From an uncultured Pseudomonadota bacterium (GTDB lineage: Bacteria; UBA10199; CAZHVX01), in assembly GCA_964536295.1 (NCBI GenBank), contig CAZHVX010000001.1:1-51869 (forward strand): a DNA stretch of 51,869 nt. The letters run 5' to 3'. This document shows, one piece after another, positions 1 to 51,869 of the stretch (positions within the stretch are counted from its first letter, which is position 1; each line of letters opens with the position of its first letter). Below the pieces are notes generated by a model. That model made no database searches, had not been told where the DNA came from, and worked only from the letters and a program-made list of their open reading frames with translations. A program made the translations under genes and the position numbers.

Positions 1-35
1 ATCCTAAAAGAAATATGATGGCGGGCAGGTGTTTC
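1..35. repeat. Partial copy of a GC-rich hairpin repeat (family D), cut by the window edge
   Basis: atcctaaaagaaatatgatggcgggcaggtgtttc is near-identical to 43334-43369, differing by one A in the loop. Confidence 0.7.
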
Positions 36-189
36 GTTTTTTCATGACAACTTTTAGCACTATCGATTTTTGTAAATATAGATCATATATCATACAAGCA
101 CAATAATTTTAAACGGTACATATAAGGGGACCCCTTACATGTAGTGTTTTGTATTTGACCGGGGCCCTGTATGATGTTATCCGGAGCCT

Positions 190-864
190 ATGAATAAAAG
201 ATTTGGAATCATATTCGATCTGGATGGAACTGTTATCGAACCTACCAAATCGATTACAAGATGCATTAATTATGCATTGTCCCAAAAAGGGTATAAAGAA
301 TACACCTCAGATGAGCTGCTAACCCACATTGGATATACATTATATGATGTCTTCCCAAAGCTAGTTGGTAACATATCCGATGAGGAAATGTGGGAGTTGG
401 TCGAACTTTATCGTAAACGATTTGATAACGAGGGAATCGCTGAAAATGAATTATATACTGGCTTCGGTAGACTATTCAAAGAAAACGCGCATAAAAATCT
501 CTTCATAGCCAGCTTAAAACCGTGGCCGGCGTGCAAAAAAATCCTTCAGCACATGAAACTTGACCATTACTTTAAGGGAATATACGGAAGCGAAAATGAC
601 GGAACCAGGTCAGACAAAACCGAGCTTGTTGCTTATCTTAAAAGCAAAGAGGGTATAAACGATGGCGTAATGGTGGGAGACCGGGAGTCCGATATTATAG
701 CTGGAAAAAAGAACGGACTTACAACGATAGGGGTCACCTACGGATATGGTAACGATACAGAACTTATGGCTGCCGGAGCCGACTTTGTGGTTTATTCCGT
801 TGAAGAGCTTAATGATCGACTAAAAACCCTAGGAGGTTGTTTTGGATCAAAAAAAACTACTTGA
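190..864 (+). CDS. HAD-superfamily hydrolase, phosphoglycolate-phosphatase-like
   Basis: N-terminal FDLDGTV (DxDGT) motif, internal S/T motif and a C-terminal VGDRESDI motif, typical of HAD-IA. Confidence 0.8.
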   Translation: MNKRFGIIFDLDGTVIEPTKSITRCINYALSQKGYKEYTSDELLTHIGYTLYDVFPKLVGNISDEEMWELVELYRKRFDNEGIAENELYTGFGRLFKENAHKNLFIASLKPWPACKKILQHMKLDHYFKGIYGSENDGTRSDKTELVAYLKSKEGINDGVMVGDRESDIIAGKKNGLTTIGVTYGYGNDTELMAAGADFVVYSVEELNDRLKTLGGCFGSKKTT

Positions 865-1591
865 ACTATTGAAACAGATTCAAAGTAATCAAAGATCACC
901 TGAGGATGTTTGCAGCGAATTGAAAAATTCTCTCATGATTGATCTTGATTTCGCAAAACTCGATCTCCACAGACCTTTACGTAACGATCTAAGTGAGGTA
1001 ATATATGGGGCAGGGAAGAGTAACGAACAAATAATTAAAATTGTAGAGGCGTTGAATTCAATAAATAAAAACATACTTGGAACACACATCAAACCCGAAA
1101 TAGGTGAGATTTTATCACAAAAATATTCTGCTTCGTCATATGATCTTGCATCCAAAACATTTTCTCTTGTCACAACCCCTTGCGAACCGATCAACAAGAA
1201 GCTGGCTATAATATGTGCCGGAACATCTGATATCCCAATTGCCGAAGAAGCCAGGTTAACCGCAAAGTTTTTCGGCATTGAGGCTAATACATTTTATGAT
1301 GTGGGGGTCGCGGGGATCCATAGGGTTTTTAATTGCATTGAAGATATCAAATCATGCGATGTGTCGATTATTGTTGCCGGAATGGAGGGGGCACTTCCAA
1401 GTGTTATGGGGGGGTTGACCCCCATGCCAATCATCGCGGTGCCGACAAGTATTGGTTACGGTACGAACCTTTCGGGGTTCACACCGCTGTTCGCAATGTT
1501 AAATAGTTGTTCGGAAGGAATCACTGTGGTGAATATCAACAACGGTTTTGGTGCAGCATGCGCTGCGTTGCGCATTTTGAAAAACAAATGA
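842..1591 (+). CDS. larB: LarB-like protein with a PurE/AIR-carboxylase fold (nickel-pincer cofactor biosynthesis family)
   Basis: About 250 aa. Has a PurE-like core (IICAGTSDIPIAEEA, VAGMEGALPSV, PIIAVPTS.GYG, VVNINNGFGAA). TTG start overlaps the HAD gene by 23 nt. Confidence 0.65.
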   Translation: MDQKKLLELLKQIQSNQRSPEDVCSELKNSLMIDLDFAKLDLHRPLRNDLSEVIYGAGKSNEQIIKIVEALNSINKNILGTHIKPEIGEILSQKYSASSYDLASKTFSLVTTPCEPINKKLAIICAGTSDIPIAEEARLTAKFFGIEANTFYDVGVAGIHRVFNCIEDIKSCDVSIIVAGMEGALPSVMGGLTPMPIIAVPTSIGYGTNLSGFTPLFAMLNSCSEGITVVNINNGFGAACAALRILKNK

Positions 1592-1601
1592 TATTTTTTT
1601 T

Positions 1602-1655
1602 GACAGGATTAACTGGATTAAATTTTCCTCTTAAAAAAATCCTGTTAATCATGTC
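1602..1655. repeat. Family C palindromic repeat (GACAGGATTAAC ... AATCCTGT), copy C1
   Basis: ACAGGAT/ATCCTGT and GATTAAC/GTTAATC inverted arms. The same motifs recur at 2844, 18844, 20409 and 43128. Confidence 0.75.
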
Positions 1656-1729
1656 AGAAAATTAAGTTTTATTTTGGAAAGCGTCGCAATAATGTTAATA
1701 TTAATTATATATAAATTATCAAAAAGTAT

Positions 1730-1759
1730 TTGACAATTCATCAATGATTCTCTTATAAT
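1730..1759 (+). promoter_or_regulatory. Consensus sigma70-type promoter for the lysine-rich protein gene
   Basis: TTGACA (1730-1735), 18-nt spacer, TATAAT (1754-1759). It lies about 55 nt upstream of the ATG at 1815. Confidence 0.6.
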
Positions 1760-1814
1760 TCGGATAACTTGGTTGGAAAAATTAATATTTAACCTTTTTA
1801 AAAAGGAGGGGAAG

Positions 1815-1976
1815 ATGGCAAAGAGAAAGAAAAAAGCCGCAACGAAGAAAGTTGTGAAGAAAAAAGTTGCGAAGAAAAAAACAGCAAAAAAAGTTGTGAA
1901 GAAAAAAGTTGCGAAGAAAAAAACAGCGAAGAAAAAAATTGTTAAGAAAACAGTGAAAAGAAAAAAGAAAAAATAA
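1815..1976 (+). CDS. Lysine-rich histone H1-like / nucleoid-associated basic protein (53 aa)
   Basis: Strong SD (AAAGGAGGGG) 5 nt before the ATG at 1815. The protein is almost entirely K/A/V/T, with KKVVKKKVAKKKTA repeated. A terminator follows. The TTG start at 1773 in the ORF track is less likely. Confidence 0.7.
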   Translation: MAKRKKKAATKKVVKKKVAKKKTAKKVVKKKVAKKKTAKKKIVKKTVKRKKKK

Positions 1977-2004
1977 GTAAGTACGCTTTGTAAAGCAGAC
2001 TTAG

Positions 2005-2039
2005 AAGCCCGAGAGCCCAACCCTCTCGGGCTTTTTTTG
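2005..2039 (+). terminator. Rho-independent terminator
   Basis: AAGCCCGAGAG (2005-2015) pairs with CTCTCGGGCTT (2023-2033) across a 7-nt loop, followed by a T7 tract. Confidence 0.85.
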
Positions 2040-2251
2040 TACACTGAAGGCACAGAGACATTGTGTACTACGCTGAGAACTCTGAGACATTACATTCTAA
2101 GCAGGCCCAAAGGGCGCGTCGAAGGGTGTATTTTACGATCAACTCCAATCCGCAAATAATGTGGCCTGGGGTATTTTTTTTCTTGTGACACTTTAATCTC
2201 TATGCTAAAAGCGTTTATCTCTTTTAACTCTTTAATTCATAGGAGGGGGAA

Positions 2252-4114: not shown

Positions 4115-4256
4115 CTTTAAAGGGAGTGGTGGAAAATGCCTTTCGATGTCATCCCTGCGAAGGCAGGGATCCAGAACTTATTGAAATTACTGGATCCCTG
4201 CCTTCGCAGGGATGACAATTTTTGAAAAAACAGTATTTTCCACCACTCCCTTAAAG
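4115..4256. repeat. Family A composite palindromic element, copy A1 (outer GGGAGTGGTGGAAAAT arms plus inner GTCATCC...GGATCC hairpin)
   Basis: Outer arm 4115-4137 is the reverse complement of 4235-4256. Inner arm TGTCATCCCTGCGAAGGCAGGGATCCAG (4148-4175) is the reverse complement of 4190-4217. Confidence 0.9.
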
Positions 4257-4403
4257 AACGTATTAAACTAGCTATGTATAAAAAATTATGGATAAACATA
4301 TTGATATTATTTAATAAAAATTACTGTTACTTAACTTTATATAATTTTAGTAAACTTAATAACATTTTAAAACATTCGTCAAGAAAAAATTGGGAAACCT
4401 TCA

Positions 4404-7306: not shown

Positions 7307-7341
7307 TCTACCTCACCCCCTTCATAATTAAGCATAATAGT

Positions 7342-7423
7342 TTTGTCATCCTCGCGAAAGCGGGGATCCAGAATATATAACTTATTGAAAAGACTGGATC
7401 CCCGCCTTCGCAGGGATGACAAA
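7342..7423. repeat. Family A palindromic element, copy A2 (inner hairpin only)
   Basis: TTTGTCATCCTCGCGAAAGCGGGGATCCAG ... CTGGATCCCCGCCTTCGCAGGGATGACAAA. The loop aacttattgaaaa resembles the A1 loop. Confidence 0.9.
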
Positions 7424-7442
7424 GAATAAAGAACCAGAATCT

Positions 7443-10681: not shown

Positions 10682-10693
10682 TGGATCTATTAT

Positions 10694-10732
10694 TAGTACC
10701 ATGTTGACATATGGTACTATTTATAGTACAAT
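10694..10732 (+). promoter_or_regulatory. Consensus promoter with an embedded operator palindrome; probably a leaderless transcript for the HTH-MNT gene
   Basis: TTGACA (10704-10709), 17 nt, TATAAT-like TACAAT (10727-10732). The ATG lies 7 nt after the -10 box. TAGTACCAT (10694-10702) and ATGGTACTA (10711-10719) form a perfect inverted repeat flanking the -35 box, and a third TAGTAC sits at 10724. Confidence 0.6.
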
Positions 10733-10738
10733 GCCCAC

Positions 10739-11251
10739 ATGAATATTAGAGATGAAATACGCGGTTCAATCGACCAAGTAGGGATATCCATACGTCAACT
10801 ATCAATACAAAGTGGTGTCAGGCGCCAAAGTATTATAAATTTTTTGAATGGGGGAAATATCCATTTAGATAATTTATCAAAGATACTAGAAGCACTTGAT
10901 TTGGATATTAAACTAATCAAAAAAACAAGGAATCAAAACCAATTAATTAAAGAACGTCTTTCAACCGACCCTACAAAAATATCAAAATTTTGCAAAAAAA
11001 ATAAAATAAATTTTCTTGCTGTTTTCGGATCCATACTGCGCAAGGATTTTACCAAAAAAAGTGATATCGATGTTTTGATCAAGCTAGACAAACCTATATC
11101 TTTTTTTGAACTATTCGAAATCGAAAAAGAACTTAAACAGCTATTCAAGACCGAGCACGAACTGGATGTGGTAACCGTTAATTCATTATCCCCGTTAATA
11201 AGGCAGGACGTACTGAATAATAACGAGGTTTTATATGAAAAAGCGTCCTGA
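10739..11251 (+). CDS. Fusion of an XRE-type HTH with a minimal nucleotidyltransferase (MNT antitoxin of the HEPN/MNT type VII TA family)
   Basis: N-terminal HTH (ISIRQLSIQSGVRRQSIINFLNG). C-terminal NTase motif (FGSILRKDFTKKSDIDVLIK ... LDVV). Confidence 0.75.
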   Translation: MNIRDEIRGSIDQVGISIRQLSIQSGVRRQSIINFLNGGNIHLDNLSKILEALDLDIKLIKKTRNQNQLIKERLSTDPTKISKFCKKNKINFLAVFGSILRKDFTKKSDIDVLIKLDKPISFFELFEIEKELKQLFKTEHELDVVTVNSLSPLIRQDVLNNNEVLYEKAS

Positions 11252-11573
11252 AATATTTTTCGATCATATGTTAATTGCTATTAACACCATAGAAAAATAT
11301 ATCCATGACTATAATTATAAAAAATTCATGGAAGATTCAAAAACAACAGACGCCGTTATTAGACAGCTGGAAATTCTGGGTGAAGCCGCTAGCAATATCC
11401 CGCTTAAAATTGTAATCGATTCACCGATTTCATGGCATTCTATAGTGGGAATGAGAAATCGATTGATTCATGATTATTTTGGGGTCGATTTGGAGATCGT
11501 GTGGAAAACAAGTAAGAAATCATTGGGTTCATTAAAAAAATACCTACAAACAAAACTAAGCACTAAGTTCTAA
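11235..11573 (+). CDS. HEPN-domain (DUF86) toxin
   Basis: RNRLIHDYF contains the Rx4H motif. About 110 aa. Overlaps the MNT stop by 17 nt. Confidence 0.8.
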   Translation: MKKRPEIFFDHMLIAINTIEKYIHDYNYKKFMEDSKTTDAVIRQLEILGEAASNIPLKIVIDSPISWHSIVGMRNRLIHDYFGVDLEIVWKTSKKSLGSLKKYLQTKLSTKF

Positions 11574-11576
11574 GTT

Positions 11577-13154
11577 CTATCTTCTCACATAAATATCCAT
11601 CCCATCCATATTGGCTTCGTATTCGTAATGCTGATCAACATATTCCTGAAGATAGGGAAATTTTTCGATCAAATAATTCTCATATCCATGTCGTTTGGCA
11701 ATTGCCGTATCCACAAAATAAACGGGTTTGTTTTTGTTGAAATCGTCAAACAACATCCTCCAGGCACCTTCGGTTGCCCAGTTTGAGGTTGTATACTTTG
11801 GATCCGATGAAAACTTAGAGCCGGCAATCCGCCCGGTTACCCAATCGCACCAGGTAAAACGGGATGCTGGTTTTCTGTCAGCGTAAAAGTAGATGGGTGT
11901 GGCAAATCCCCAGACAAAGATATGATCATCCACCGATGTTTTTTCCATAATATATCTGGCAACGGGGCGGTAATCATCGGGATTATCCTCACCGACCCAT
12001 GAATAAATTTGATTTTTTATCATTCGCGCACCAAAGAAGGCAACAGAGGGAAGCAGTATACCAAGCATAAACATGACGTACGCCCATTGCATGGCCTTTG
12101 GCTTCATTACGGGAAGCTTTATTAGAAATCTATCCACTTGATATGAAGCCAATATGCAAAGAGCTGGTAGCAGTTGAATAAAATAATGCCCGTAATATCT
12201 TCCGCCAATCGTTACAGGATAAATGCTGAACAAAAACCAGAAAAACAACACATATATGGCTGTTTGCTCTTTGGTTCTGTCGACTGAAATGAAAATATTC
12301 TTGAATAACCTTAGAATTTCACGCACACCAAAAAACCAAATTAAAAAAGTTGAGACAATAAAAGTGGAGGAGCGGACAAAGAATTTACGAAGGACATCAA
12401 TGACGGTTTTGCCGGCATCTATGTAGGCCATGCTCCCCTTGATGCTCCAAAAATAATAATCATCCAATACGCCCATCAGGTGCAAATGCAATAAATATAT
12501 AAGATACATGACGATAGCACCTGAGAAAAATATAGAGAATGCCCAAATCTTGGGTTTATTGAGTGTCTTTCGTAAGAACAGGGGACGAAAAATAAGCAGA
12601 TAGAATGCTATAACAAAAAGATTCATCCCTCCCTGATATTTAAAAAGAGCTCCAATCATCAGAAAAATACCACTCAAAAAAAGGAGCCATTTTTTACTAT
12701 GATCTTCCTCCCACTTTAGAAAATAAAAAATACTTACGGTAAGGGGCAACATCATCAATATTACAATGTTCGTTGAAATGAATTTAGGTATATAGGTGGT
12801 TGTAAAGATCACATAGAAAAGCGCCGCCAGCAATCCCGATCGCTCATTGTATAGATGCTTGCCGATTCTAAAGCAAAAGAGGGCGGTCACACCGACCCAA
12901 ATGGCTGTAAAGAAATGAATGGCGATCATGTTATTTTTGCCAAATATCCAAAAGATGACGGTGAAAAAGTAGTAAACGAAGAGGGGTTTCGTATCTACTG
13001 TGTCTATGTATGGTGATCCCCCATCAAGAAGCGTGTTGGCAAATACCGCAAATTGGGACTCATCAATATCCAGGATGGGATAAATGTAAGAAGGAATCCT
13101 TAAAATCACAGAAAGCAATAATATCCCTAAAAATATTTTTGTCGTTCTTTTCAT
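11577..13154 (-). CDS. GT-C fold glycosyltransferase (ArnT/PMT-like, polyprenyl-phosphate-sugar dependent)
   Basis: At least 10 TM helices. The first periplasmic loop carries DIDESQFA...DTKPL, the acidic DxD/E motif of ArnT/PMT_2 enzymes. Confidence 0.7.
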   Translation of the reverse strand: MKRTTKIFLGILLLSVILRIPSYIYPILDIDESQFAVFANTLLDGGSPYIDTVDTKPLFVYYFFTVIFWIFGKNNMIAIHFFTAIWVGVTALFCFRIGKHLYNERSGLLAALFYVIFTTTYIPKFISTNIVILMMLPLTVSIFYFLKWEEDHSKKWLLFLSGIFLMIGALFKYQGGMNLFVIAFYLLIFRPLFLRKTLNKPKIWAFSIFFSGAIVMYLIYLLHLHLMGVLDDYYFWSIKGSMAYIDAGKTVIDVLRKFFVRSSTFIVSTFLIWFFGVREILRLFKNIFISVDRTKEQTAIYVLFFWFLFSIYPVTIGGRYYGHYFIQLLPALCILASYQVDRFLIKLPVMKPKAMQWAYVMFMLGILLPSVAFFGARMIKNQIYSWVGEDNPDDYRPVARYIMEKTSVDDHIFVWGFATPIYFYADRKPASRFTWCDWVTGRIAGSKFSSDPKYTTSNWATEGAWRMLFDDFNKNKPVYFVDTAIAKRHGYENYLIEKFPYLQEYVDQHYEYEANMDGMDIYVRR

Positions 13155-14249: not shown

Positions 14250-14358
14250 CGTTGTTCGTTGACGCAGCCCGTATCGTTAGTCAGTTACGGTGACGTCTCA
14301 TCAACCGTAACCGAAAAACGTTACCGATACAGGTAGCGTTACCGTTAAACAAACAACG
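14250..14358. repeat. Nested imperfect palindrome between the GT2 gene and asnB
   Basis: CGTTGTTCGTT (14250-14260) pairs with AAACAAACAACG (14347-14358), and GTTACGGT (14284) pairs with ACCGTAAC (14305). CGTTACCG is directly repeated at 14319 and 14337. Confidence 0.6.
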
Positions 14359-14366
14359 AATTAATC

Positions 14367-16247: not shown

Positions 16248-16248
16248 T

Positions 16249-16318
16249 GGCTGAGAGATTTTAGAACTTAGCTGAGAGAATAAATAACTCTCAGCCCTCA
16301 GCTAAGCTCTCTCAGCTT
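16249..16318. repeat. Family B palindromic repeat (GCTGAGAG ... CTCTCAGC arms), copy B1
   Basis: GCTGAGAG aataaataa CTCTCAGC, with extra tandem CTCAGC arms. Ends 18 nt before the leuS ATG. Confidence 0.85.
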
Positions 16319-16334
16319 AAATAAAAGGGAAGTT

Positions 16335-18836
16335 ATGACAATACGGGCATATGATCCAAAAACGATAGAATTAAAGTGGCAGGATTTTTGGGAAAAGAAG
16401 AAAACCTTCAAAGTAAAACATCTCAAGGATAAGAAAAAGTATTACATCCTTGAAATGCTACCATATCCGTCAGGCGCACTGCATATGGGACACGTTCGCA
16501 ACTATTGTCTAGGGGACGTTCCTGCACGATATTACATGATGAAGGGTTACAACGTTCTTCATCCAATAGGGTGGGATGCGTTTGGAATGCCCGCGGAAAA
16601 TGCCGCTATCAAACATAAAGCACATCCGGCAGATTGGACAAAGCAGTGCATCGAGACAATGCGCGGTCAATTAAAGGCCCTTGGATATTCCTATGATTGG
16701 GATCGCGAAATCGCCACATGTGAGCCGGAGTATTATAAGTGGGAACAGTTGATCTTCACGAAACTCTTCGAAAAGGGTTTGGCATATAAAAAAGCCTCTT
16801 TGATCAATTGGTGCGATAAGTGCGCAACCGTTCTTGCAAATGAACAGGTTGAGGGGGGCTATTGCTGGAGATGTTCTTCTGTTGTTCAGCAAAGACCCAT
16901 GGAACAGTGGTATTTAAAGATCACCGATTATACCGAAGAACTGTTGTCGGATATTGATGATAAGCTTCAGGGGTGGCCGGATCGTGTAACGGTAATGCAA
17001 AAGGAGTGGATCGGAAAGAGCCACGGCACCTGGATCGAATTTCTGATCGAGGGCGAGGAAGAACCTTTAAAGATATTTACAACGCGCCCTGACACGCTCT
17101 TCGGCGTAACTTTTATGTCACTGGCTTGTGAACATCCACTGGTAATGAAACTGGCAAAAAAATATGGCAAAGAAAAGGAAATGTCTAATTTTATTCAAAA
17201 GGCTGCCAAAATCGATCGCATGAATCGCCTGGAGGAGAACTACGAAAAAGAGGGCGTCTTTACGGGTGCGTATTGCATCAATCCAGCCACCCATGACAAG
17301 GTCCCAATCTTTGCAGCCAACTTCGTTTTAATGGAATATGGAACAGGTGCAGTCATGGCCGTCCCGGGTCATGATCAGAGGGATTTTGAATTTGCCAAAA
17401 AGCATAAGCTTCCAATCAAAGTAGTTATTCAACCAACATGTCATCCTGAGCAAAGCGAAGCCCGCCTTGCCGCGAGACAGGGATCCAGTGGCAACACCCT
17501 GGATTCTTCACTAGATCCACTAACCATGATAGAAGCATATGAGGGCGAAGGCGTTATGGTAAATTCCGGCGAATTCAATAACCTTCAGAACGTTAAAGGA
17601 ATCGCTGAGATTACAAAATACCTTGAAATACACGGCGTTGGAGGCCCAACCGTAAACTATAAGTTGAAGGATTGGTGCGTGTCCAGACAGCGGTATTGGG
17701 GTGCACCGATTCCAATTATTTATTGCGACAAATGCGGAACGGTTCCCGTTCCTGAAAAAGATCTGCCGGTAGAATTGCCACGAGATGTCGAATTTACAGG
17801 AGAAGGGGGCTCTCCGCTAACCAAGGTTAAAGAATTCGTAAATTGTAGGTGCCCAAAGTGTAAGGGGAACGCAAGACGCGAAACGGACACAATGGACACC
17901 TTTGTGGAATCCAGTTGGTATTTCTTACGCTACGCATCCCCGCACTATAAAAAGGGCCCTGTTGACCCCAAAGAGATGAAATTTTGGCTACCCGTGGATC
18001 AATACATCGGAGGAATTGAACACGCCGTGGGTCACCTGATGTATTGCCGTTTTTGGACCAAAATTTTAAGGGATTTGGGGTATCTCGAATTTGCGGAACC
18101 CGTTAAAAATCTCATGACACTTGGAATGGTCATTAAAGACGGCGTCAAGATGAGCAAATCCAAGGACAATGTTGTTTCCCCTGATGAAATGATCGAAAAA
18201 TACGGCGCCGACACTACTCGTATTTTCAGTTTATTTGCAGCTCCTCCCACAAAGGATCTTGAATGGAACGAGCAGGGGGTCGAAGGATCGCATCGTTTCT
18301 TGGGACGCGTTTGGCGCATTGTGCAAGGGTATCTTGAAACGAAAAAACACGCAGATAAAAACTCCGAGGAACTTAACAAGTGGATGCACAAGACCATCAA
18401 GCGTGTGACAGATGATATCGAACGTTATCACTTCAACACAGGCATTTCGGCAATCATGGAGTATATTAACTTCCTCACACAGCAAGAGCCCAAGGATTTG
18501 ACAAAAGAAGCAATTGAGGCGCTGATACTTTTAATATCGCCATTTGCTCCGCATATAACTGAAGAGATGTGGAAATTGACGGGACACAAAAAATCAATAG
18601 TCACTGCAAGTTGGCCATCATATGACAAAAACGCCCTCGTTGAGGATTTGATGCTTATAGTTGTTCAGATAAATGGCAAGCTTCGCGACAAACTGGATGT
18701 GCCTGTTGATATGGATCAGAAAGAGATTAAGAAATTAGCTCAGGACTCGAATAAGGTAAGGTCCCATACCGACGGCAAAAATATTGTTAAAGTAATCTAC
18801 GTACCAAAGAAGTTGGTAAATATTGTTGTGAAATAA
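16335..18836 (+). CDS. leuS: Leucyl-tRNA synthetase
   Basis: HMGH (HIGH-type) and KMSKS motifs, a CP1 editing domain and zinc-finger cysteines. Carries an in-frame repeat insertion at 17438-17509. Confidence 0.95.
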   Translation: MTIRAYDPKTIELKWQDFWEKKKTFKVKHLKDKKKYYILEMLPYPSGALHMGHVRNYCLGDVPARYYMMKGYNVLHPIGWDAFGMPAENAAIKHKAHPADWTKQCIETMRGQLKALGYSYDWDREIATCEPEYYKWEQLIFTKLFEKGLAYKKASLINWCDKCATVLANEQVEGGYCWRCSSVVQQRPMEQWYLKITDYTEELLSDIDDKLQGWPDRVTVMQKEWIGKSHGTWIEFLIEGEEEPLKIFTTRPDTLFGVTFMSLACEHPLVMKLAKKYGKEKEMSNFIQKAAKIDRMNRLEENYEKEGVFTGAYCINPATHDKVPIFAANFVLMEYGTGAVMAVPGHDQRDFEFAKKHKLPIKVVIQPTCHPEQSEARLAARQGSSGNTLDSSLDPLTMIEAYEGEGVMVNSGEFNNLQNVKGIAEITKYLEIHGVGGPTVNYKLKDWCVSRQRYWGAPIPIIYCDKCGTVPVPEKDLPVELPRDVEFTGEGGSPLTKVKEFVNCRCPKCKGNARRETDTMDTFVESSWYFLRYASPHYKKGPVDPKEMKFWLPVDQYIGGIEHAVGHLMYCRFWTKILRDLGYLEFAEPVKNLMTLGMVIKDGVKMSKSKDNVVSPDEMIEKYGADTTRIFSLFAAPPTKDLEWNEQGVEGSHRFLGRVWRIVQGYLETKKHADKNSEELNKWMHKTIKRVTDDIERYHFNTGISAIMEYINFLTQQEPKDLTKEAIEALILLISPFAPHITEEMWKLTGHKKSIVTASWPSYDKNALVEDLMLIVVQINGKLRDKLDVPVDMDQKEIKKLAQDSNKVRSHTDGKNIVKVIYVPKKLVNIVVK
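17438..17509. repeat. Truncated family A element (copy A3) inserted in frame in leuS
   Basis: By eye, about 48 of the first 51 nt match the reverse complement of copy A5 (30037-30145). 72 nt equals 24 codons, translated as CHPEQSEARLAARQGSSGNTLDSS. Confidence 0.85.
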
Positions 18837-18843
18837 TTTTTTC

Positions 18844-19058
18844 GACAGGATTAACTAGATTATGAATCAAAATTCGAAATTAAAATATCGAAAAACGAAA
18901 TGGTTCGACAGGCTCACCACCCTGAGAGAGTGTAAGCGAGTCGAAGGACAACTACGAAATAAGAAATTCGAATTTCGTGCCTTAAATTTCTTATTTGTTT
19001 CGATATTCGGATTTCCAGTTTCGGATTTAGTTCAAAATAATCCTGTAAATCCTGTCAG
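18844..19058. repeat. Composite family C element, copy C3 (GACAGGATTAAC ... AATCCTGTAAATCCTGTC) with a TTCGAA-rich core and a family A-type sub-module
   Basis: Terminal motifs are shared with C1, C2 and C4. The core aattcgaaat/cgaatttcg strings resemble 43170-43290. Positions 18920-18948 share the CCTGAG..GAGTCGAAGG module. Confidence 0.8.
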
Positions 19059-19073
19059 ATAAAAAATTTATTT

Positions 19074-20374: not shown

Positions 20375-20408
20375 TTTCCACTCCTTACGATTACATTTGA
20401 AACAGGAT

Positions 20409-20572
20409 AAACGCTGATAAACTCTGATGTTTTATTTAATCGGTATCTATCCTGCTATTTATAAAAGATTCACCTAAAACAACTCTTCAGGTATTATTTA
20501 ACCAATTTCCCTTCAAAACACAAACAAAAACCAAAATCAGCGTTCATCTGCGTTAATCCTGTTGCGTTTTTT
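20409..20572. repeat. Family C element, copy C5
   Basis: The right end aaaatcagcgttcatctgcgttaatcctgtt is the exact reverse complement of the left end of C4 (43131-43161). The left end shares gtttatcagcgtttatcc with the right end of C4. Confidence 0.85.
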
Positions 20573-20653
20573 CAATACATCTCCCTCAATTTGAGGTGCT
20601 TCTCTATAGGAAAACAATTGATATGTCAAGAATTTTACTGTATCCTGCCCGGG

Positions 20654-20728
20654 AGAACTTAGAACTTAGCTGAGAGTTATCTATAACAGACCTTTTCTCT
20701 CAGCTCTCAGCTAAGATCTCTCAGCTAG
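20654..20728. repeat. Family B palindromic repeat, copy B2
   Basis: agaacttagaacttaGCTGAGAG ... CTCTCAGCtCTCAGCtaagatCTCTCAGC. The last arm ends 9 nt before the murJ ATG. Confidence 0.85.
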
Positions 20729-20734
20729 CACAAT

Positions 20735-23168: not shown

Positions 23169-23183
23169 CTTGCTCTCCTTGAA

Positions 23184-23248
23184 AGAACTTTGAACTTAGC
23201 TGAGAGCTGAGCGTTTTTTCTCTCAGCTAAGATCTAAGCACTAAGTAC
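23184..23248. repeat. Family B palindromic repeat, copy B3
   Basis: agaactttgaacttaGCTGAGAGCTGAGCgttttttCTCTCAGCtaagatctaagcactaag. It overlaps the mazG stop codon and lies about 15 nt upstream of the Cys-rich gene start. Confidence 0.8.
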
Positions 23249-24014
23249 TAGTTTTAATAAACTGCCAAACCTCTTCCATCTCCTCAACTGTCATCTTCTT
23301 TAAGTCAAGCCCACGCTTTTTGATTTCATCTTCCATCTTGTGAAAACGTTCAACAAACCTATTGTTCGCCTTGCGCAGGGCCTCCTCGGGATTGATATCC
23401 AAAAAACGTCCCGCGTTTGCTAGACAAAATAGGATATCACCGAACTCGTGTTCGATCTCTTTTTTAGGCAAACCTTTTTGTTGCGCTTCATGAAGCTCGT
23501 GAACTTCTTCTTCAAGTTTTTCTAAAATACCTTCGGTATCGTCCCAGTCAAAACCAACTCGCGCTGATTTCTGACCCAGGCGATATGCCTTTAAAAGGGA
23601 TGGGAGAACCTTCGGCACTCCACCCAAAAGGGATTTTTTACCTTCCTTGATCTTGATATGCTCCCAGTTTTGCAAAACCTCTTTAGAACTTTTCACCTCT
23701 ACTTCACCGAAGACATGAGGATGCCTTCGAATCAATTTTTCACATATGGAGTCTATTGCATCATCAATCGTGAACTTTTTTTCTTCAGCCGCAAACTGCG
23801 CATAAAACACAATCTGCAAGAGCATATCCCCAAGTTCCTCTTTAGTATTATCCCAATCGCGATTGTCGATAGCATCAAAAAGCTCATGCACCTCCTCAAG
23901 GGTATAGGCCTTGATGTCATCTATGCTTTGTTCACGATCCCACGGGCAACCGCCGGGAGCCCTCAGTTTGGCCATTATATCGACCAGTTTTTGAAATTTT
24001 TCATTAGTTTTCAT
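23241..24014 (-). CDS. mazG: Nucleoside triphosphate pyrophosphohydrolase MazG
   Basis: Tandem MazG domains with CPWDREQ, EE..E...A and EE.GD motifs. Start moved to the ATG at 24014. Confidence 0.85.
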   Translation of the reverse strand: MKTNEKFQKLVDIMAKLRAPGGCPWDREQSIDDIKAYTLEEVHELFDAIDNRDWDNTKEELGDMLLQIVFYAQFAAEEKKFTIDDAIDSICEKLIRRHPHVFGEVEVKSSKEVLQNWEHIKIKEGKKSLLGGVPKVLPSLLKAYRLGQKSARVGFDWDDTEGILEKLEEEVHELHEAQQKGLPKKEIEHEFGDILFCLANAGRFLDINPEEALRKANNRFVERFHKMEDEIKKRGLDLKKMTVEEMEEVWQFIKTST

Positions 24015-30020: not shown

Positions 30021-30036
30021 ATACTGGATGTTGGGG

Positions 30037-30145
30037 TGTCATTCTGATCCTGAGCGAGTGAAACGAGTCGAAGGAGAAGAATCCAGCGTATAACCTGGAT
30101 CCCTGCCTCGCGGCAAGGCGGGCTTCGCTATACTCAGGATGACAT
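30037..30145. repeat. Family A palindromic element, copy A5 (full length, intergenic between lnt and prfB)
   Basis: GTGTCATTCTGA ... CTGGATCCCTGCCTCGCGGCAAGGCGGGCTTCGCTATACTCAGGATGACAT. Confidence 0.9.
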
Positions 30146-30177
30146 ACTCTGTTATCCAAAAATTAGGGAGAAATTAA

Positions 30178-31261
30178 GTGAGCAAAGAATTACAAGAAAA
30201 ACTGAAGACCTTAAAAAAACAGCTCGATGAACTTCGGGGGTCTCTTTGACATCGATCAAAAAAAGTCCCGCATTAATGAATTAGAAAAAAAGTCCCAAAG
30301 TCCCGATTTTTGGAACGACCAACGCGCCGCACAAAAGATAATCAATGAAGCAAATTCATTAAAACTCATTGTGAATTTATGGCAAGAGCAGAGTTGTAAC
30401 CTTGAGGATGTCAGCGCAATACTTGAGCTTGGTGATGATCCTGATCTTACCAAAGAAGCGGAAGAAAAAATAAATATCGTCGAAAAAAATATTGGTGAGC
30501 TGGAATTTCGCAAAATGCTTTCAGGTGAACATGACAAAGCAAGCGCAATTTTGTCAATAAACGCCGGGGCAGGGGGTACCGAATCCTGCGATTGGGCTGG
30601 GATGCTTTTAAGAATGTACCGCCGTTGGGCCGATATTCACAAATATAAAAATGAATTCGTCGAATTTACCCCTGGTGATGAAGCTGGCTTTAGATCAGTC
30701 ACACTCACAATTGAGGGAGAATATGCGTACGGATATCTAAAGGCGGAGATAGGTGTCCATCGTCTGGTGAGGATATCTCCATTTGATTCAAATAAGCGCC
30801 GGCACACATCCTTTGCATCGGTCTTTGTTATCCCCGATATCGAGGATGATATTGAGATCGAGATAATTGAAACGGACCTAAGGATTGATACCTTTCGATC
30901 GGGTGGCGCCGGAGGGCAACACGTAAACACAACGGATTCTGCAGTAAGATTAACTCACCTCCCAACTGGAATTGTTGTTGCATGCCAGGCGGAGAGATCA
31001 CAACATCAAAACAAAGAACGCGCAATGAAGGTTTTGAAGGCCAAACTTTATGACCACGAATTGCAAAAGAAATTGGCAGAAAAGGAAGTCTTGGAAAAAA
31101 CCAAAAAGAAAAATGAATGGGGTTCACAGATACGTTCTTATGTTATGCATCCATATCGGATGATCAAGGATCACAGAACCGATATGGAAACGGGGAACGT
31201 AGACGCCGTAATGGACGGCAACCTTGATGATTTTATTAAAAAGTTCTTACTTGAGTTTTAG
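30178..31261 (+). CDS. prfB: Peptide chain release factor 2, expressed through a programmed +1 ribosomal frameshift
   Basis: The GTG at 30178 opens a 23-codon frame-0 leader ending CTT TGA (30244-30249). The main body runs in the +1 frame from 30248. It contains SPF-type and GGQ (GGAGGQHVN) motifs. Confidence 0.9.
30235..30250 (+). promoter_or_regulatory. RF2 autoregulatory +1 frameshift site
   Basis: CGG GGG TCT CTT TGA C, compared with E. coli AGG GGG TAT CTT TGA C. It has the internal SD-like GGGGG, the slippery CTT and the weak UGA-C stop. Confidence 0.9.
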
Positions 31262-34059: not shown

Positions 34060-34071
34060 AAGGAGGACAAA

Positions 34072-34281
34072 ATGACATACGGCACGATTTCACCAAAATA
34101 TCAGGTTGTTATTCCCAAAGAGATCCGTGAACAGATCAGTGTAAAACCCGGCCAGCGCCTTATGATTATCGCAAAGGATAATGTGATTTACATGGTCCCC
34201 GAGGCATCTCTTAAGGATTTAAAGGGGCGCTTTAAGGGGATGTCCATTGATAACCTAAGGGATGAGGATGATCGCATATGA
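34072..34281 (+). CDS. vapB: AbrB/SpoVT-family antitoxin (VapB/MazE-like)
   Basis: The PKYQVVIPKEIRE swapped-hairpin motif. 69 aa. Overlaps the PIN gene by 4 nt (ATGA). Confidence 0.8.
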   Translation: MTYGTISPKYQVVIPKEIREQISVKPGQRLMIIAKDNVIYMVPEASLKDLKGRFKGMSIDNLRDEDDRI

Positions 34282-34652
34282 TTATTATAGATTCATCCGC
34301 CTGGATTGAATTTTTGTCGGGTGGCAAAAAAGCTGGGGTGCTTGAAAAATATTTCAAGCCCTCGAATAAAATAATTATCCCTTCAATTGTTATCTACGAG
34401 GTTTACAAAAAAATCAAATCAGAAAAGGGCGAATCGGAGGCCGTGTTTATAATTGCACAGATGGAAAGGCTTGCGAGTGATGTTGTTGAGATAGATCATC
34501 CATTGGCAGTCCTTGCTGCAGATCTAAGCATACAAAAGAAACTCCCAATGGCAGATGCAATGATATACGCCGTTGCAATCCATTTTGGCGCCACTATAAT
34601 CACATTGGATAAGCACTTCAAAGATTTGGAGTTTGCGAAGTGCTTTGGATAA
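34278..34652 (+). CDS. vapC: PIN-domain ribonuclease toxin VapC
   Basis: Acidic quartet in PIN positions: IIDSS (D6), YEV, MADAMI and TLDKHF. Confidence 0.85.
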   Translation: MIIIDSSAWIEFLSGGKKAGVLEKYFKPSNKIIIPSIVIYEVYKKIKSEKGESEAVFIIAQMERLASDVVEIDHPLAVLAADLSIQKKLPMADAMIYAVAIHFGATIITLDKHFKDLEFAKCFG

Positions 34653-34730
34653 ACACATCTACCAAACCCTTGACTACTTCGCGGAATTACTATAGTTTCT
34701 CGTAAATTATTAGACAAATTTCATTTATTA

Positions 34731-34783
34731 ACCACCAAGACACAAAGACACTAAGCATATTCATTTCTTAGTGACTTAGTGGT
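34731..34783. repeat. Imperfect palindrome (family E: ACCACCAAGACACAAAGACACTAAG ... CTTAGTGACTTAGTGGT) upstream of lysS
   Basis: The inverted arms are visible by eye. Related cacagag/gcacagaac strings occur at 2045-2090 and at the 3' window edge (51826-51869). Confidence 0.5.
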
Positions 34784-34798
34784 GAAAAAGAGGACGGC

Positions 34799-37548: not shown

Positions 37549-37550
37549 AA

Positions 37551-37630
37551 CTAGAGCTTAGTGCTTAGAATTTAGCTGAGAGGTCTACTATATAGCAAAA
37601 CTCTCAGCTCTCAGCTCTCAGCCAAGCTCT
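37551..37630. repeat. Family B palindromic repeat, copy B4
   Basis: tttaGCTGAGAGgtctactatatagcaaaaCTCTCAGCtCTCAGCtCTCAGC. Ends 15 nt before the GTG of the next gene. Confidence 0.85.
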
Positions 37631-42450: not shown

Positions 42451-42451
42451 C

Positions 42452-43111: not shown

Positions 43112-43127
43112 AACTATTATGGTAAAA

Positions 43128-43369
43128 CGAAACAGGATTAACGCAGATGAACGCTGATTTTTGTAAATAACATTCGAAACACGAAACAAATTCGAATATC
43201 TAAATTCGAATGTTCAAAACTCGTGTTTCAGTTTTGGGTAATTCGAATTTCGAGCTTGTTTCGAGTTTCGGGATTCGGATTTTGGATTTAAAAAGAAGCA
43301 TCCGTGTTTATCAGCGTTTATCCCCCGCCTGCCATCCTAAAAAGAAATATGATGGCGGGCAGGTGTTTC
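43128..43369. repeat. Composite family C element (copy C4) joined to the family D hairpin
   Basis: The left end is the exact reverse complement of the right end of C5. The TTCGAA-rich core resembles that of C3. The hairpin CCGCCTGCCATC...GATGGCGGGCAGG (43324-43363) is repeated at the window start. Confidence 0.85.
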
Positions 43370-46638: not shown

Positions 46639-46750
46639 GTGATTAAGATAAATGAGTTACAAGGGAATAACAAACGAAAAATATGCAAATTTTCGAAACA
46701 AAACTAAAATCATTGATTTAATTAATATTTTTCGCTATTCTCACCATAAT

Positions 46751-46955
46751 GGGAGTGGTGGAAAATACGTTTTGTTGACTCTTGTGTCATTCTGAGTCCG
46801 CCAAACCTGCCTCGCGTTGTTCAGCAAGGCGGGGGCAGACGAAGAATCCAGTAAAATCAATTTGTTAACTCTGGATCCCTCATGGAGTTTATCCTGAGCG
46901 AACGTCAATGAGTCGAAGGGTTCAGGATGACAAAACGCATTTTCTACCACTCACC
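46751..46955. repeat. Family A composite element, copy A6 (outer GGGAGTGGTGGAAAAT arms plus a long inner element)
   Basis: Outer arm GGGAGTGGTGGAAAATACGTTTTG (46751-46774) pairs with CAAAACGCATTTTCTACCACTCACC (46931-46955). The inner element runs TGTGTCATTCTGAG ... TTCAGGATGACA. Confidence 0.9.
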
Positions 46956-49129: not shown

Positions 49130-49321
49130 TTAGGCGGCCTTCACTACCTTGCCACTCCTTAAACAACGTGTGCAAACATTACGACGTGCGTTGGCGCCAT
49201 TGACCTTAACTTTAACTTTTTGAAGATTAGGTAACGAGCGTTTCTTTGATCTATTATTGGCGTGTGATACCTTGTTTCCAACGAGGGCGCCTTTGCCACA
49301 AATTTCACATCTTCTAGACAT
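49130..49321 (-). CDS. rpmB: 50S ribosomal protein L28
   Basis: [11 protein letters not shown]...[14 protein letters not shown]. Start moved to the ATG at 49321. Confidence 0.9.
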
Positions 49322-49422
49322 ATTTAATCTCCTGTAGTATGTGTTGGTGGGTGCTATTAGCACGTAGGTTAAAACATGGCAAGCATTTTTTTATCTAAAT
49401 GCCAAAAAAGCTTAGATTTCAT

Positions 49423-49776
49423 ATGGATAGACAAACTACCGGTAAAATAGGAGAGGACCTGGCGATGCAATACCTTGTGGATAAAGGTTTTTCCGTTATC
49501 CACAGAAATTATCGCCTCCCCATAGGTGAAATTGACCTTGTAGCCAAAAAAAAGGATACAATCTACTTTACCGAGGTAAAAACTCGTAAGGATGAAGAAA
49601 AAGGAACACCACTAGAGGCAATATCCGCATCCAAAATCTCCACGCTAAAGAAGCTTGCAGAGTGGTACCTTGCCAAGGAAAACCCCGATTATAAGGATGT
49701 ATCACTTGCTGCCATTGGAGTCTGCCTCAACGTCGAACCCCCGGAGATATTATTTATACCAGACATAACTTCGTAA
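49423..49776 (+). CDS. yraN: YraN-family (UPF0102) endonuclease-like protein
   Basis: GKIGEDLA..YL...G..I...NYR...GEIDLVA....TIYFTEVKTR, a PD-(D/E)xK-like motif. Confidence 0.8.
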   Translation: MDRQTTGKIGEDLAMQYLVDKGFSVIHRNYRLPIGEIDLVAKKKDTIYFTEVKTRKDEEKGTPLEAISASKISTLKKLAEWYLAKENPDYKDVSLAAIGVCLNVEPPEILFIPDITS

Positions 49777-49888
49777 CTATTTAGATTTAAACAAAATTCC
49801 TAGACATACGTGTATGGATATGTATATTTAGAATAGGGTGAATTTTTTACATAATTTTTTTACACACAATCCGTGCTGGTTTGTGTAT

Positions 49889-50030
49889 AAAGGGAGTGGT
49901 GGAAAATACGTTTTGTCATCCTGAATTCGCCAAGGCGAATGAAGCCTGCCTGCCGCAGGCAGGGATCCAGTGCTAACAAATTGGATCCGCTGGATTCTTC
50001 GCCCGCCTCGGGCGGACTCAGAATGACACA
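49889..50030. repeat. Family A composite element, copy A7 (left outer arm present, right outer arm missing)
   Basis: AAAGGGAGTGGTGGAAAATACGTTTTGTCATCCTGA ... GCAGGCAGGGATCCAG ... CTGGATTCTTCG ... CTCAGAATGACAC. Confidence 0.9.
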
Positions 50031-50061
50031 AAGGTCAACAATTGGTAGTTAACAACACACT

Positions 50062-51822
50062 ATGACAAATATACTTCAGCATTTTTACAATCAGGGAAAA
50101 AGACAGGCCAACAATCCATGCTGGACTTTGCACAGGAATGGGGCATGGCACACACTCTCATGGAGTGAGGTTCTGAAAACTGTTCAAAAACTTCACCATG
50201 CATTAAAGAAGATTGGTGTTCGTAACGGAACAAAAATAGGGATCCTTTCATCCACATGTTATCAGTGGTCAATAGCGGATCTTGCAATATTAGCACTTAA
50301 GGGGATTTCCGTACCCCTACACAGCACACTTGCCGGGAAGCAGGTAATCGAAATCATTAAAGATTCCAATTGCGAATATCTCTTTGTTGAAGATATGGAG
50401 CAGTGGCTCAAAATCAAATCATTACTTGATGAAACCAATATCAAAGAGGTCATAGCATTTCATAAATTCAAGGACCTCCACCTTGATATCGACACCCTCA
50501 TAGATGGAATCAATGAAATAGACGACACGGCCTATTTAAGTGAGATATCATCTATATCACTTGAGGATAACGCCAGTTATATTTACACATCTGGAACCAC
50601 CGGTGAACCAAAGGGCGTAGTCATCACCCACAAAAGTATAATGGCGGAGGTTGAAGGCTTGCAGGATATCTTTGATCTCAAAGAAAACGAACTGATCTTC
50701 CTATTTCTCCCGCTTTCACACGTAATCGGAAGATCCGTGCAATTCTACCATCTGGCACAGGGTTGCCAACTATCGTTTGTGCAGAGCATGCAAAGAATCC
50801 CGGAGAATATGCGTGAGGTAAGGCCACACTTTGTTTCCGCCGTTCCGCGTTTCTTTGAAAAGTTTTACGAAAATATCGTTTTGGAGGTCTGCAAAAGATC
50901 CTTCATCACAAAGAAGCTTTTTTATAAATGTGTATCTATCGGTGAAAAAATGAGTGATCATCTCAGATTAAGAAAAAAAATTCCGTTCAGATTAAGGATA
51001 GAATTTTTTATAGCAAAATCAATTTTACTAAGAAAACTTTACGACGCACTCGGGGGCAGAATCCAGTATTTCATCTGCGGCGGAGCCCCGTTATCCAAGG
51101 ACCTGGCCAGATTCTTTCATGCCTTGGGTATCCTTATCTGCGAAGGATGGGGGTTAACCGAAACATTTAGCGCGGCAACATTAAATCGCCCCGATGACTA
51201 CCACTTTGGTACCGTAGGAAAACCTTTAAAGGGAGTCCAGTTGAGGCTAGAGGCCGATAACGAAATCTTCGTAAGGGGAGACGTCCTTTTCAAAGAATAT
51301 TATAAAAAGCCCGAAGCAACACAAAACGTTCTCGATAAAGATGGATGGTTTGCAACGGGGGATATTGGCGAATTTTCAAAGGACGGCTTTTTAAGAATAA
51401 CCGGTCGTAAGAAAGATATTATCATAACAGCCGGAGGAAAAAACATCGCCCCCCAACAGGTTGAGGGGCTTATACAAAAAAGCAAATACATCGACCAAGT
51501 TGTGGTCCATGGAGACAGGAGAAAGTATTTATCCGCCCTGATTACTTTAAACTTTGCTGAAGTTGAAGAATATGCTAGAAATACAGGGATTAGTTGGCAG
51601 AATAGGGATGACCTTGCCAATCACAAGGATATTAACAACTTAATAAAGTCCGAGATCGATAGCGCAAACTCAAATCTTGCAGGCCATGAAACGGTTAAAA
51701 GATTTGCGATTTTGGAGAATCATCTCTCCATTGAAACAGGGGAAATGACCCCAACAATGAAAATTAAAAGACAGGTTGTTGAGAACAAGTATAAAGATAT
51801 TTTAGATGCTCTTTATAAATGA
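50062..51822 (+). CDS. Long-chain-fatty-acid--CoA ligase (AMP-forming adenylate-forming family)
   Basis: AMP-binding motif YTSGTTGEPKGV, plus the TGD and GRKKDII motifs. Confidence 0.85.
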   Translation: MTNILQHFYNQGKRQANNPCWTLHRNGAWHTLSWSEVLKTVQKLHHALKKIGVRNGTKIGILSSTCYQWSIADLAILALKGISVPLHSTLAGKQVIEIIKDSNCEYLFVEDMEQWLKIKSLLDETNIKEVIAFHKFKDLHLDIDTLIDGINEIDDTAYLSEISSISLEDNASYIYTSGTTGEPKGVVITHKSIMAEVEGLQDIFDLKENELIFLFLPLSHVIGRSVQFYHLAQGCQLSFVQSMQRIPENMREVRPHFVSAVPRFFEKFYENIVLEVCKRSFITKKLFYKCVSIGEKMSDHLRLRKKIPFRLRIEFFIAKSILLRKLYDALGGRIQYFICGGAPLSKDLARFFHALGILICEGWGLTETFSAATLNRPDDYHFGTVGKPLKGVQLRLEADNEIFVRGDVLFKEYYKKPEATQNVLDKDGWFATGDIGEFSKDGFLRITGRKKDIIITAGGKNIAPQQVEGLIQKSKYIDQVVVHGDRRKYLSALITLNFAEVEEYARNTGISWQNRDDLANHKDINNLIKSEIDSANSNLAGHETVKRFAILENHLSIETGEMTPTMKIKRQVVENKYKDILDALYK

Positions 51823-51869
51823 TTTTATCACCGCAGAAGCACAGAACGTATTGGAACACGCTGAAAATA

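Follow-up and report, generated by a model that had tools for sequence, protein, structure and literature searches.

The gene spacers of contig CAZHVX010000001.1, from an uncultured bacterium (assembly GCA_964536295.1), raise the question of what has filled them, over and over, with self-complementary repeats. The whole stretch analysed, referred to here as the window, is 51,869 bp long, has a GC content of 40% and is densely packed with genes, and the repeats in question fall into families A to E. Taken as a whole, they are probably best explained if family A consists of NTS/SRM-type hairpins, inserted sites for an Ssn nuclease encoded elsewhere in the same genome, with families B, C (together with D) and E being separate.

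Repeat finding, self-BLAST and pattern scans of the window recovered six loci of family A with 11 units, four copies of family B, five copies of family C in two subtypes, two hairpins of family D and two E-type palindromes. The dense repeats of a preliminary description of this DNA are real: the families were found at the places it implied, far above chance, and they sum to ~1.94 kb (3.7% of the window), close to the ~2 kb first estimated and equal to ~40% of the 4.8 kb between long open reading frames (ORFs). There are 20 gaps of ≥60 nt, three of which are small genes (an AbrB-type antitoxin, rpmB and a 77-amino-acid ORF), and 14–15 of the 17 true spacers hold a family member, so that nearly all spacers of this size are indeed filled. 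The strong self-complementarity was also borne out, with a DNA-fold z of ≤−2 in 16/18 elements (lowest −16), the exceptions being A3 (−1.4) and C2 (−1.9), as was the lack of any transposase, integrase or Cas gene: Pfam scans of all long ORFs in the 51.9-kb window found none of these, and no GIY-YIG gene. Two statements stood in part only. The repeats were described as filling intergenic spacers, which is true of most, but one family A copy lies within the leuS ORF; and seven copies had been counted for family A, for which GTCATYCTGA-N18-48-GRATCCAG has seven matches in the window (0.00 in 100 shuffles) and a looser unit pattern gives 11 units at six loci. The repeat population is therefore real and dense, yet it belongs to a known kind: content beyond that of ordinary repetitive extragenic palindromic (REP) sequences and bacterial interspersed mosaic elements (BIMEs) had been proposed, but family A matches the known NTS/SRM hairpin family, and its mosaic arrays parallel the Neisseria intergenic mosaic elements (NIMEs).

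On one strand, a family A unit reads T-GTC, a stem starting ATYC(T), a variable top, a closing (A)GRAT, and CCAG. Four units are simple, with an 8-bp stem and a 4-nt loop (GAAG or GAAA). Inverted doublets (unit, spacer of 8–20 nt, inverted unit) account for 10/11 units; the two units of a doublet are identical in A1 and wholly different in their inner parts in A4–A6, where those parts are nested hairpins, for example CCTGAG...GAGTCGAAGG or CCTGCC...GGCAGG. Inner modules of this sort are found again in other phyla. An outer inverted repeat, GGGAGTGGTGGAAAAT, is present at three of the six loci. Ten of the 11 units (11 units in 51.9 kb, a density that would put several hundred A units in the genome as a whole) are intergenic, and loci may bracket genes, A1 and A2 enclosing two M16 peptidase genes and A5 and A6 enclosing relA-rpmB-yraN. 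The six loci are the following, with strand given where one applies.

A1, 4117–4252: inverted doublet of identical 27-nt NTS-like units, 4148–4174 (+) and 4190–4216 (−), each GTC-ATCCCTGC-GAAG-GCAGGGAT-CCAG; outer inverted repeat at 4122–4137 / 4235–4250, with TTAAA flanks on both sides; fold z = −16.
A2, 7342–7426: NTS-like doublet, 7345–7371 (+) and 7394–7420 (−), between convergent genes; unit 7345–7371 is GTC-ATCCTCGC-GAAA-GCGGGGAT-CCAG.
A3, 17438–17510 (+): copy within the leuS ORF; full unit 17440–17488, followed by a spacer and by 12 nt from the start of a right-hand unit.
A4, 30036–30147: doublet, 30038–30086 (+) and 30095–30143 (−), between lnt and prfB; left unit with a nested CCTGAG...GAGTCGAAGG hairpin, right unit with a GCGAAGCCCGCCTTGCCGCGAG module.
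A5, 46746–46952: doublet, 46786–46851 (+) and 46871–46931 (−), with long mosaic inner modules, upstream of relA/spoT; outer repeat at 46751–46766, with a degenerate partner at 46935–46950.
A6, 49887–50058: doublet, 49915–49970 (+) and 49990–50027 (−); outer repeat on the left side only, 49892–49907.

Directly upstream of A6 lies a YraN/UPF0102 nuclease-fold gene, 49399–49776 (+); a link between it and the repeats is unlikely, since yraN is a common housekeeping gene.

SsnA is a 94-amino-acid GIY-YIG nuclease that binds the NTS as single-stranded DNA (ssDNA) and cuts the strand a few bases upstream (Chenal et al., Nat Commun 2025, PMC11893778). The published NTS, CGTCATTCCCGCGMAVGCGGGAATCYRG, is an oriented subset of the Neisseria dRS3 repeat; SRM motifs and Ssn homologs occur in many phyla, including Wolbachia, Rickettsia (listed among the SRM-rich genera) and sphingomonads, and 71% of ssnA homologs have SRMs nearby (PMC11893778). 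The units at 4148–4174 and 7345–7371 agree with the NTS in their 8-bp stem, in a loop of GMAV type and in being flanked by GTC and CYRG. Cleavage by SsnA needs the three bases 5′ of the palindrome, and binding is most dependent on the C just 3′ of it (PMC11893778); GTC lies directly 5′ of the palindrome in 11/11 family A units, with a T before each, and CCAG, hence a C 3′ of the palindrome, follows the stem in 11/11. In a permissive Rfam scan, moreover, 7329–7440 aligned, below threshold, with WsnRNA46 of Wolbachia, whose consensus has the same build as family A (GTCATCC...GGATCCAG / CTGGAT...GGATGAC), Wolbachia being a named SRM host (PMC11893778). The sub-threshold Rfam matches of A1 were to hairpin models only, and permissive matches to plant and animal miRNA precursors were rejected as generic long-hairpin look-alikes.

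The spread of the motif was assessed by scanning one genome per bacterial species (596 Gb) for the three-block pattern GTCATYCTGA-N18-48-GRATCCAG-N5-30-CTGGATYC. About a dozen phyla contributed to the matches, which numbered at least 113 stretches against ~2 expected by chance (our own estimate) and included stretches from Patescibacteria, Sphingomonas, Methylotenera, Fibrobacter, Chlorobi, Ignavibacteria, Bacteroidota, Babeliales, Acidobacteriota, Opitutaceae and Bdellovibrionales. The framing of the repeats as confined to this genome consequently had to be abandoned, given family A in about a dozen phyla and family C-like hairpins in Gemmata. A scan of viral sequences with the two-block pattern gave, among the matches listed, single matches at about the estimated chance rate, and was uninformative.

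These copies also show how the hairpin folds. A closing GRATGAC, absent from the query, is present in 108 distinct matches among those listed; in these, the variable Y in GTCATYC is complemented by the R in its own unit's GRATCCAG, a pairing that holds for 108/108 units on the left and 103/108 on the right. Across the two units of a doublet this position pairs in only 64/108, on which ground the folding of the doublet as one long hairpin was rejected. Across 248 distinct units, stem positions 3, 5 and 8 covary, and positions 6–7 carry tandem G.A/A.G in 153 and 145 units (~60%), compared with 0 and 1 in the reversed arrangement, so that the tandem G.A mismatch variant, and not the Neisseria form, is the commonest among the copies sampled; T.G exceeds C.A on the GTC strand by 27 to 10. 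The same-unit covariation and the G.A/A.G and T.G bias therefore imply that the units fold independently of one another, and that they do so on the GTC strand. As far as can be read from sequence, the GTC strand would then be the folding strand, in agreement with the activity of SsnA, which is strand-specific and restricted to single strands (PMC11893778).

A RAYT (REP-associated tyrosine transposase) of IS200 type had been named as the partner to seek; the motif points instead to a GIY-YIG gene of ~95 amino acids. Single-domain GIY-YIG genes adjoin the repeats in 3/113 listed loci. Two are ORFs of 96 and 97 amino acids (L213 and L149), and at the third (L194) the domain is the C-terminal end of a longer open frame. 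In one genome, at L228 1973–2616, at least seven SRM doublets follow one another in tandem every 96 bp, their spacers alternating between two versions, in a NIME-like array that ends at an assembly gap.

The modular elements, standing with no transposase nearby as first described, are insertions and not ancestral spacer. A relative (GCA_041739675.1, LeuRS 66% identical) keeps the gene order leuS-holA-rpsT-murJ, with a leuS-holA spacer of 4 bp where the window has 237 bp (C3) and an rpsT-murJ spacer of 75 bp where the window has 360 bp (C4 and B2); its DUF6485 and mazG genes overlap at the point where the window has B3. It follows from these short orthologous spacers that the repeats were inserted.

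Insertion into a gene is seen in leuS (ORF 16335–18836, +), where A3 is translated in frame as a 21-amino-acid insert in LeuRS, CHPEQSEARLAARQGSSGNTL. This insert is absent from 15/15 aligned homologs, including one at 74% identity, and lies at the end of the CP1 editing domain, beside residue 365 of Thermus LeuRS. The leuS copy is identical in sequence in a second assembly, so that two assemblies carry the insert, and its 94% identity to the intergenic unit at 30095–30145, 12.6 kb away, argues for fairly recent copying. Rickettsia palindromic elements (RPEs) can lie in frame within protein-coding genes, where they are tolerated as an extra surface peptide. The likeness of family A to RPEs, drawn from their description, lies in such in-frame palindromic repeats in coding genes, here in one coding insertion only. 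Among NTS copies, just 2% lie inside genes (PMC11893778).

An ssn gene would be expected elsewhere in this genome, and its product may both cut these copies and have spread them; for all three steps the argument is by analogy. Several points weigh against such a reading. A search of the six frames of the window by regular expression and phmmer gave no GIY-YIG match. The published SRM string HGTCWYN(0-2)YYVSBRHN(0-5)WNVSBRGN(0-2)RNCYNB matches only 1/11 units (7344–7371; shuffles 0.08); the other ten miss it because their stems are one base longer or carry inserted modules, and the failure concerns the search heuristic, not a mechanistic feature. Outside Neisseria no function is known for Ssn and SRMs, and PMC11893778 offers their spread by Ssn only as a hypothesis; no study of SRM mobility was found among the papers citing the Ssn work. 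The window and a contig of GCA_018894695.1 are 99.97% identical across 6.5 kb, including several repeats, with no indel, so that very recent movement is not shown, and 'actively spreading', as the repeats had been called, goes too far. Families B–E are absent from 834 kb of SRM-bearing loci of other genomes (B, C and D not being enriched there), and no GIY-YIG ORF was found near C-like hairpins in other genomes, leaving B–E with no link to Ssn. Lastly, the GGGAGTGGTGGAAAAT repeat that forms the outer layer, flanked in two cases by TTAAA or TTAAG at either side, looks more like the end of a classical MITE (miniature inverted-repeat transposable element).

That the repeats are classical MITEs, that is, non-autonomous derivatives of DDE elements which move by cut-and-paste or copy-out with target-site duplication, would apply especially to the composites bounded by GGGAGTGGTGGAAAAT and to family C, bounded by TTTTTTCGACAGGATTAAC. 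These have terminal inverted repeats of 16–21 nt, the orthologous sites are empty in the relative, and TTAAA (A1) and TTAAG (L238) direct repeats flank the GGGAGTGG-bounded composite, which also occurs in metagenome contigs of 36–47% GC; family C and the GGGAGTGG composites are in this respect like Correia elements and other MITEs, with no matching transposase known. Set against this, searches of the window, of plasmids and of the fetched loci turned up neither a complete element nor a transposase with these ends; the near-palindromic nature of the TTAAR flanks, and their absence in L241 and A5, leave a target duplication unproven; several copies have one outer end only (A6); and the SRM signature is carried by the inner units whatever the outer repeat. 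MITEs are thus an unlikely explanation of the whole, and the outer GGGAGTGGTGGAAAAT repeat with its TTAAA/TTAAG flanks hints at a MITE-like layer.

The flanks themselves occur as direct repeats around GGGAGTGGTGGAAAAT-bounded composites in two cases (window 4117–4127 / 4250–4257; L238 2660–2800), other copies having none, and could reflect either a target duplication or a preference for TTAA. A lineage-specific composite, GGGAGTGGTGGAAAATRC...GTCATYC, is present in eight metagenome contigs of 36–47% GC from other organisms; none of the eight carries ssn, and none comes from the window's own genome.

The doublets could also be REPINs copied by a RAYT (an IS200-like HUH enzyme of Y1 type) whose gene would lie elsewhere. 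In layout, two hairpin units set in opposite orientation around a short spacer are REPIN-like, and the copies are multiple and intergenic, with no such enzyme close by; indeed, the Ssn paper itself draws the REPIN parallel (PMC11893778). The kinship with REP/BIME sequences and the REPIN-RAYT systems of Gammaproteobacteria extends to the intergenic mosaics of hairpin pairs and to the reliance on a single distant enzyme acting on single-stranded hairpins. A GTAG head is typical of REPs. The family A units have instead (T)GTC on the 5′ side and CCAG on the 3′ side, and match the NTS/SRM base for base. The gene that adjoins such repeats in other genomes is a GIY-YIG gene, no Y1 transposase was found in the window, and REP sequences are species-specific whereas this motif is common to about a dozen phyla. 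It is accordingly very unlikely that a RAYT lies behind family A.

On a further view, the one favoured by the idea of a structured-RNA regulon, the hairpins would do their work as RNA, terminating transcripts, stabilising mRNAs or serving as small RNAs in a cis or trans regulon. Predicted folding is strong, covariation on one strand and G.U-type wobble fit RNA as well as ssDNA, WsnRNA46, the Wolbachia element with this build, is listed as a small RNA, and several copies lie in likely operons (B4, C2, C3). Nevertheless, Rfam at gathering thresholds gave no match in the window; units in inverted pairs give either transcript one 'sense' and one 'antisense' copy; convergent, divergent and co-directional spacers all contain copies; a T-run seldom follows the stem, a terminator scan flagging only stems with no consistent T-tail; one copy is translated inside leuS; and SsnA does not bind the RNA form of the NTS (PMC11893778). 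A role in RNA is disfavoured on these grounds and must be called highly improbable. That the hairpins are mainly targets of an IS110/Piv-type recombinase, as dRS3 is for filamentous (Nf) prophages of Neisseria, for which it is a documented integration site with stems like those of family A, is extremely unlikely, as the window holds no IS110/Piv gene, prophage or interrupted unit and the idea explains the use of the sites, not their multiplication.

Families B, C (with D) and E share the niche of family A as hairpin families in their own right, with no partner protein known. Their arms are built of tandem short repeats: CTNAGNN heptamers in B, ACAGGATTA-type 9-mers with NNTCGAA in C-i, GATNAACGCT 10-mers in C-ii and GTTACCG in E1. 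The four copies of B and five of C first described were all confirmed, the latter splitting into subtypes C-i (three copies) and C-ii (two copies), and the weaker E-type palindromes were found at two places.

B1, 16248–16320: hairpin TTAGCTGAGAG-loop-CTCTCAGC, with arms of tandem CTNAGNN; fills the asnB-leuS spacer.
B2, 20646–20730: upstream of murJ.
B3, 23176–23254: between the DUF6485 gene and mazG.
B4, 37549–37630: (CTCTCAG)x3.1, between two co-directional FtsX/MacB-type permease genes, likely inside an operon.
C1 (C-i), 1592–1648: ends TTTTTTGACAGGATTAAC ... AATCCTGT, between convergent genes.
C2 (C-i), 2833–2932: between the genes for arginine decarboxylase and agmatinase; its right end, AATCTTGTAAATCCTGTC, is also found in a contig of 61% GC (L249).
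C3 (C-i), 18832–19073: 242-nt composite with GACAGGATTAAC ends, NNTCGAA-type arms and a CCTGAG...GAGTCGAAGG module at its centre; z = −5.3; fills the leuS-holA spacer.
C4 (C-ii), 20399–20570: ends of tandem 10-mers GGATWAACGC / GATRAACKCT, period 10.
C5 (C-ii) with D, 43124–43369: C5, 43124–43323, fused to a D hairpin, 43325–43369 (CCTGCCATC...GATGGCGGGCAGG).
D hairpin, 1–35: right half and loop; 30 nt identical to 43340–43369.
E-type palindrome, 14250–14366: GTTACCG-type short repeats in the arms; z = −2.4.
E-type hairpin, 34720–34790: CACTAAG...CTTAGTG, with the CTAAG/CTTAG word as in family B.

In C1, CTGGATTAAATTT presumably resembles a Correia end. Family D, with its two copies, is not independent, since both abut the right end of a C-ii element: the D hairpin at 1–35 ends another C-ii/D composite, whose C-ii arm lies just upstream in L245 1–80 (GCA_022013305.1), and the C-ii/D junction, ...ATCAGCGTTTATCCCCCGCCTGCCATCC..., is identical upstream of the window start in that assembly. 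D is an end module of the C-ii subtype and not a family of its own. The arm word of family B is seen again at 11556–11589, where CTAAGNN heptamers (CTAAGCA CTAAGTT CTAAGTT) run over the stop codons of convergent hepT and glycosyltransferase genes.

Beyond the window, families B and C gave no match in plasmids, and two viral matches to the family B pattern were set aside as looking like chance. Genuine C-like hairpins are present in viral or prophage contigs of 59–68% GC, one of them from Gemmata obscuriglobus. They consist of tandem ACAGGATNA 9-mers (L265 5982–6034; L258 6945–7016 and 8670–8726; L253 3628–3755; L249 11946–12000; also L252/L256/L260), with the build and end sequence of family C in the window. 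No shared candidate partner was found near them, only phage-type genes common to related contigs.

The genes around the repeats are ordinary. Pfam scans of the long ORFs identified the housekeeping genes leuS, lysS, asnB, holA, rpsT, murJ, relA/spoT, bamA, lnt, prfB, ybeY and phoH, along with lolCDE-like genes, M16 peptidases and two toxin-antitoxin pairs (10682–11573 and 34060–34652). The first pair joins an HTH-nucleotidyltransferase to a HepT RNase and is preceded by an operator-like palindrome, GTACCATGTTGACATATGGTAC; the second comprises an AbrB-type antitoxin and a PIN toxin. In prfB (30177–31261) a classic +1 frameshift site, CTT TGA C, lies at 30244 behind a GGGGG stretch, the short upstream frame starting from GTG at 30177. 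A lysine/alanine-rich ORF of 134 amino acids, 1649–2053 (−), is encoded by ~10 copies of a 15-nt tandem repeat, AAGAAAAAAGTTGCG; it has no Pfam or NCBIfam match and looks like a histone-H1-like DNA-binding protein. Past the last gene, at 51830–51869, there begins a palindrome, ATCACCGCAGAAGCACAGAAC ... GTGTCTCAGCGGTGAT, which extends beyond the window end in L246 2390–2484.

As to the host, the closest named homologs of the window LeuRS are from groundwater metagenome-assembled genomes labelled Deltaproteobacteria (60–63% identity). Window LeuRS is identical to a protein in GCA_018894695.1, and another window protein is identical to one in GCA_022013305.1. In these two other assemblies of the species the region lies in contigs of 2.5–12 kb (L245, L246, L001), with the window edge genes on contigs of 2.5–3.1 kb only; mapped contig ends do not lie at repeats. 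The repeat load may have contributed to contig breakage in both.

Among known systems, family A is closest to the NTS/SRM motifs, with which it shares an oriented hairpin (5′ GTC, ATYC...GRAT stem, 3′ C(Y)RG and, in simple units, a GNAN-type loop), many copies that are mostly intergenic and often bracket genes, folding on one strand, occurrence across phyla, and GIY-YIG genes beside the repeats elsewhere. It differs from them in that most copies have the tandem G.A/A.G and nested hairpin modules, in units of up to 66 nt, and in that the units stand in inverted doublets, some inside an outer inverted repeat, with one copy in frame in an essential gene. In the NIMEs of Neisseria, dRS3 repeats (ATTCCC-N8-GGGAAT) flank RS elements of 19–214 bp, of which there are many families. 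Here, too, 20-bp dRS3-like palindromes (ATCCCTGC-N4-GCAGGGAT, as against ATTCCC-N8-GGGAAT) bound variable spacers in intergenic mosaics, but they do so as short doublets and not long arrays, with variable modules also inside the hairpin tops, with stems that are dRS3-like and not ATTCCC/GGGAAT, and in an uncultured bacterium of 40% GC and not Neisseria; the resemblance is one of architecture only. The arms of families B, C and E, built of tandem 7–10-mers, recall the short tandemly repeated repetitive (STRR) sequences of cyanobacteria, which are direct arrays, in contrast to the hairpins with repeat-built arms found here.

By analogy with SsnA, the family A hairpin, into which the GTC strand folds in ssDNA, with its tandem G.A/A.G mismatch in most copies, would be bound by a small GIY-YIG protein of a single domain (Ssn, cd10448), the product of a gene in another part of the genome, and this nuclease would introduce a nick a few bases to the 5′ side of GTC. 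Family A elements would have reached the spacers, and in one case a coding loop, by insertion. Expansion of their stem tops by other small hairpin modules, and the wrapping of 3/6 loci by the outer GGGAGTGGTGGAAAAT, give the mosaics that are so like NIMEs and REPINs. In Neisseria, Ssn nicking of exposed single strands limits the recombination of incoming DNA (PMC11893778); Ssn-dependent nicking of exposed single strands may likewise limit the recombination of incoming ssDNA at these sites, and may copy the units. A bolder proposal, which we hold only tentatively and give a small chance of being right, is that Ssn and its SRMs are a mobile system of a new mechanistic class, in which a GIY-YIG nickase of ~95 amino acids would copy units via ssDNA, landings beside or inside hairpin tops would build the mosaics and doublets, an occasional in-frame landing would fall in an essential gene such as leuS, and B and C would have partner proteins of their own. 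If that were true, bacterial spacers would host several parallel 'hairpin plus small nuclease' systems.

What the finding means for this organism is that a repeat-dense stretch of an uncultured groundwater bacterium is probably tied to a repeat/nuclease pair characterised only in 2025, and that the gene to look for in its genome is a small GIY-YIG nuclease, not a RAYT. For the motif family at large, the cross-phylum data lend independent support to the hairpin model, in which every unit folds by itself and the GTC strand is the one that does so. How these motifs multiply is a question left open in PMC11893778, and one to which the in-frame leuS copy, the doublets, their nested modules and the outer inverted repeat are all relevant.

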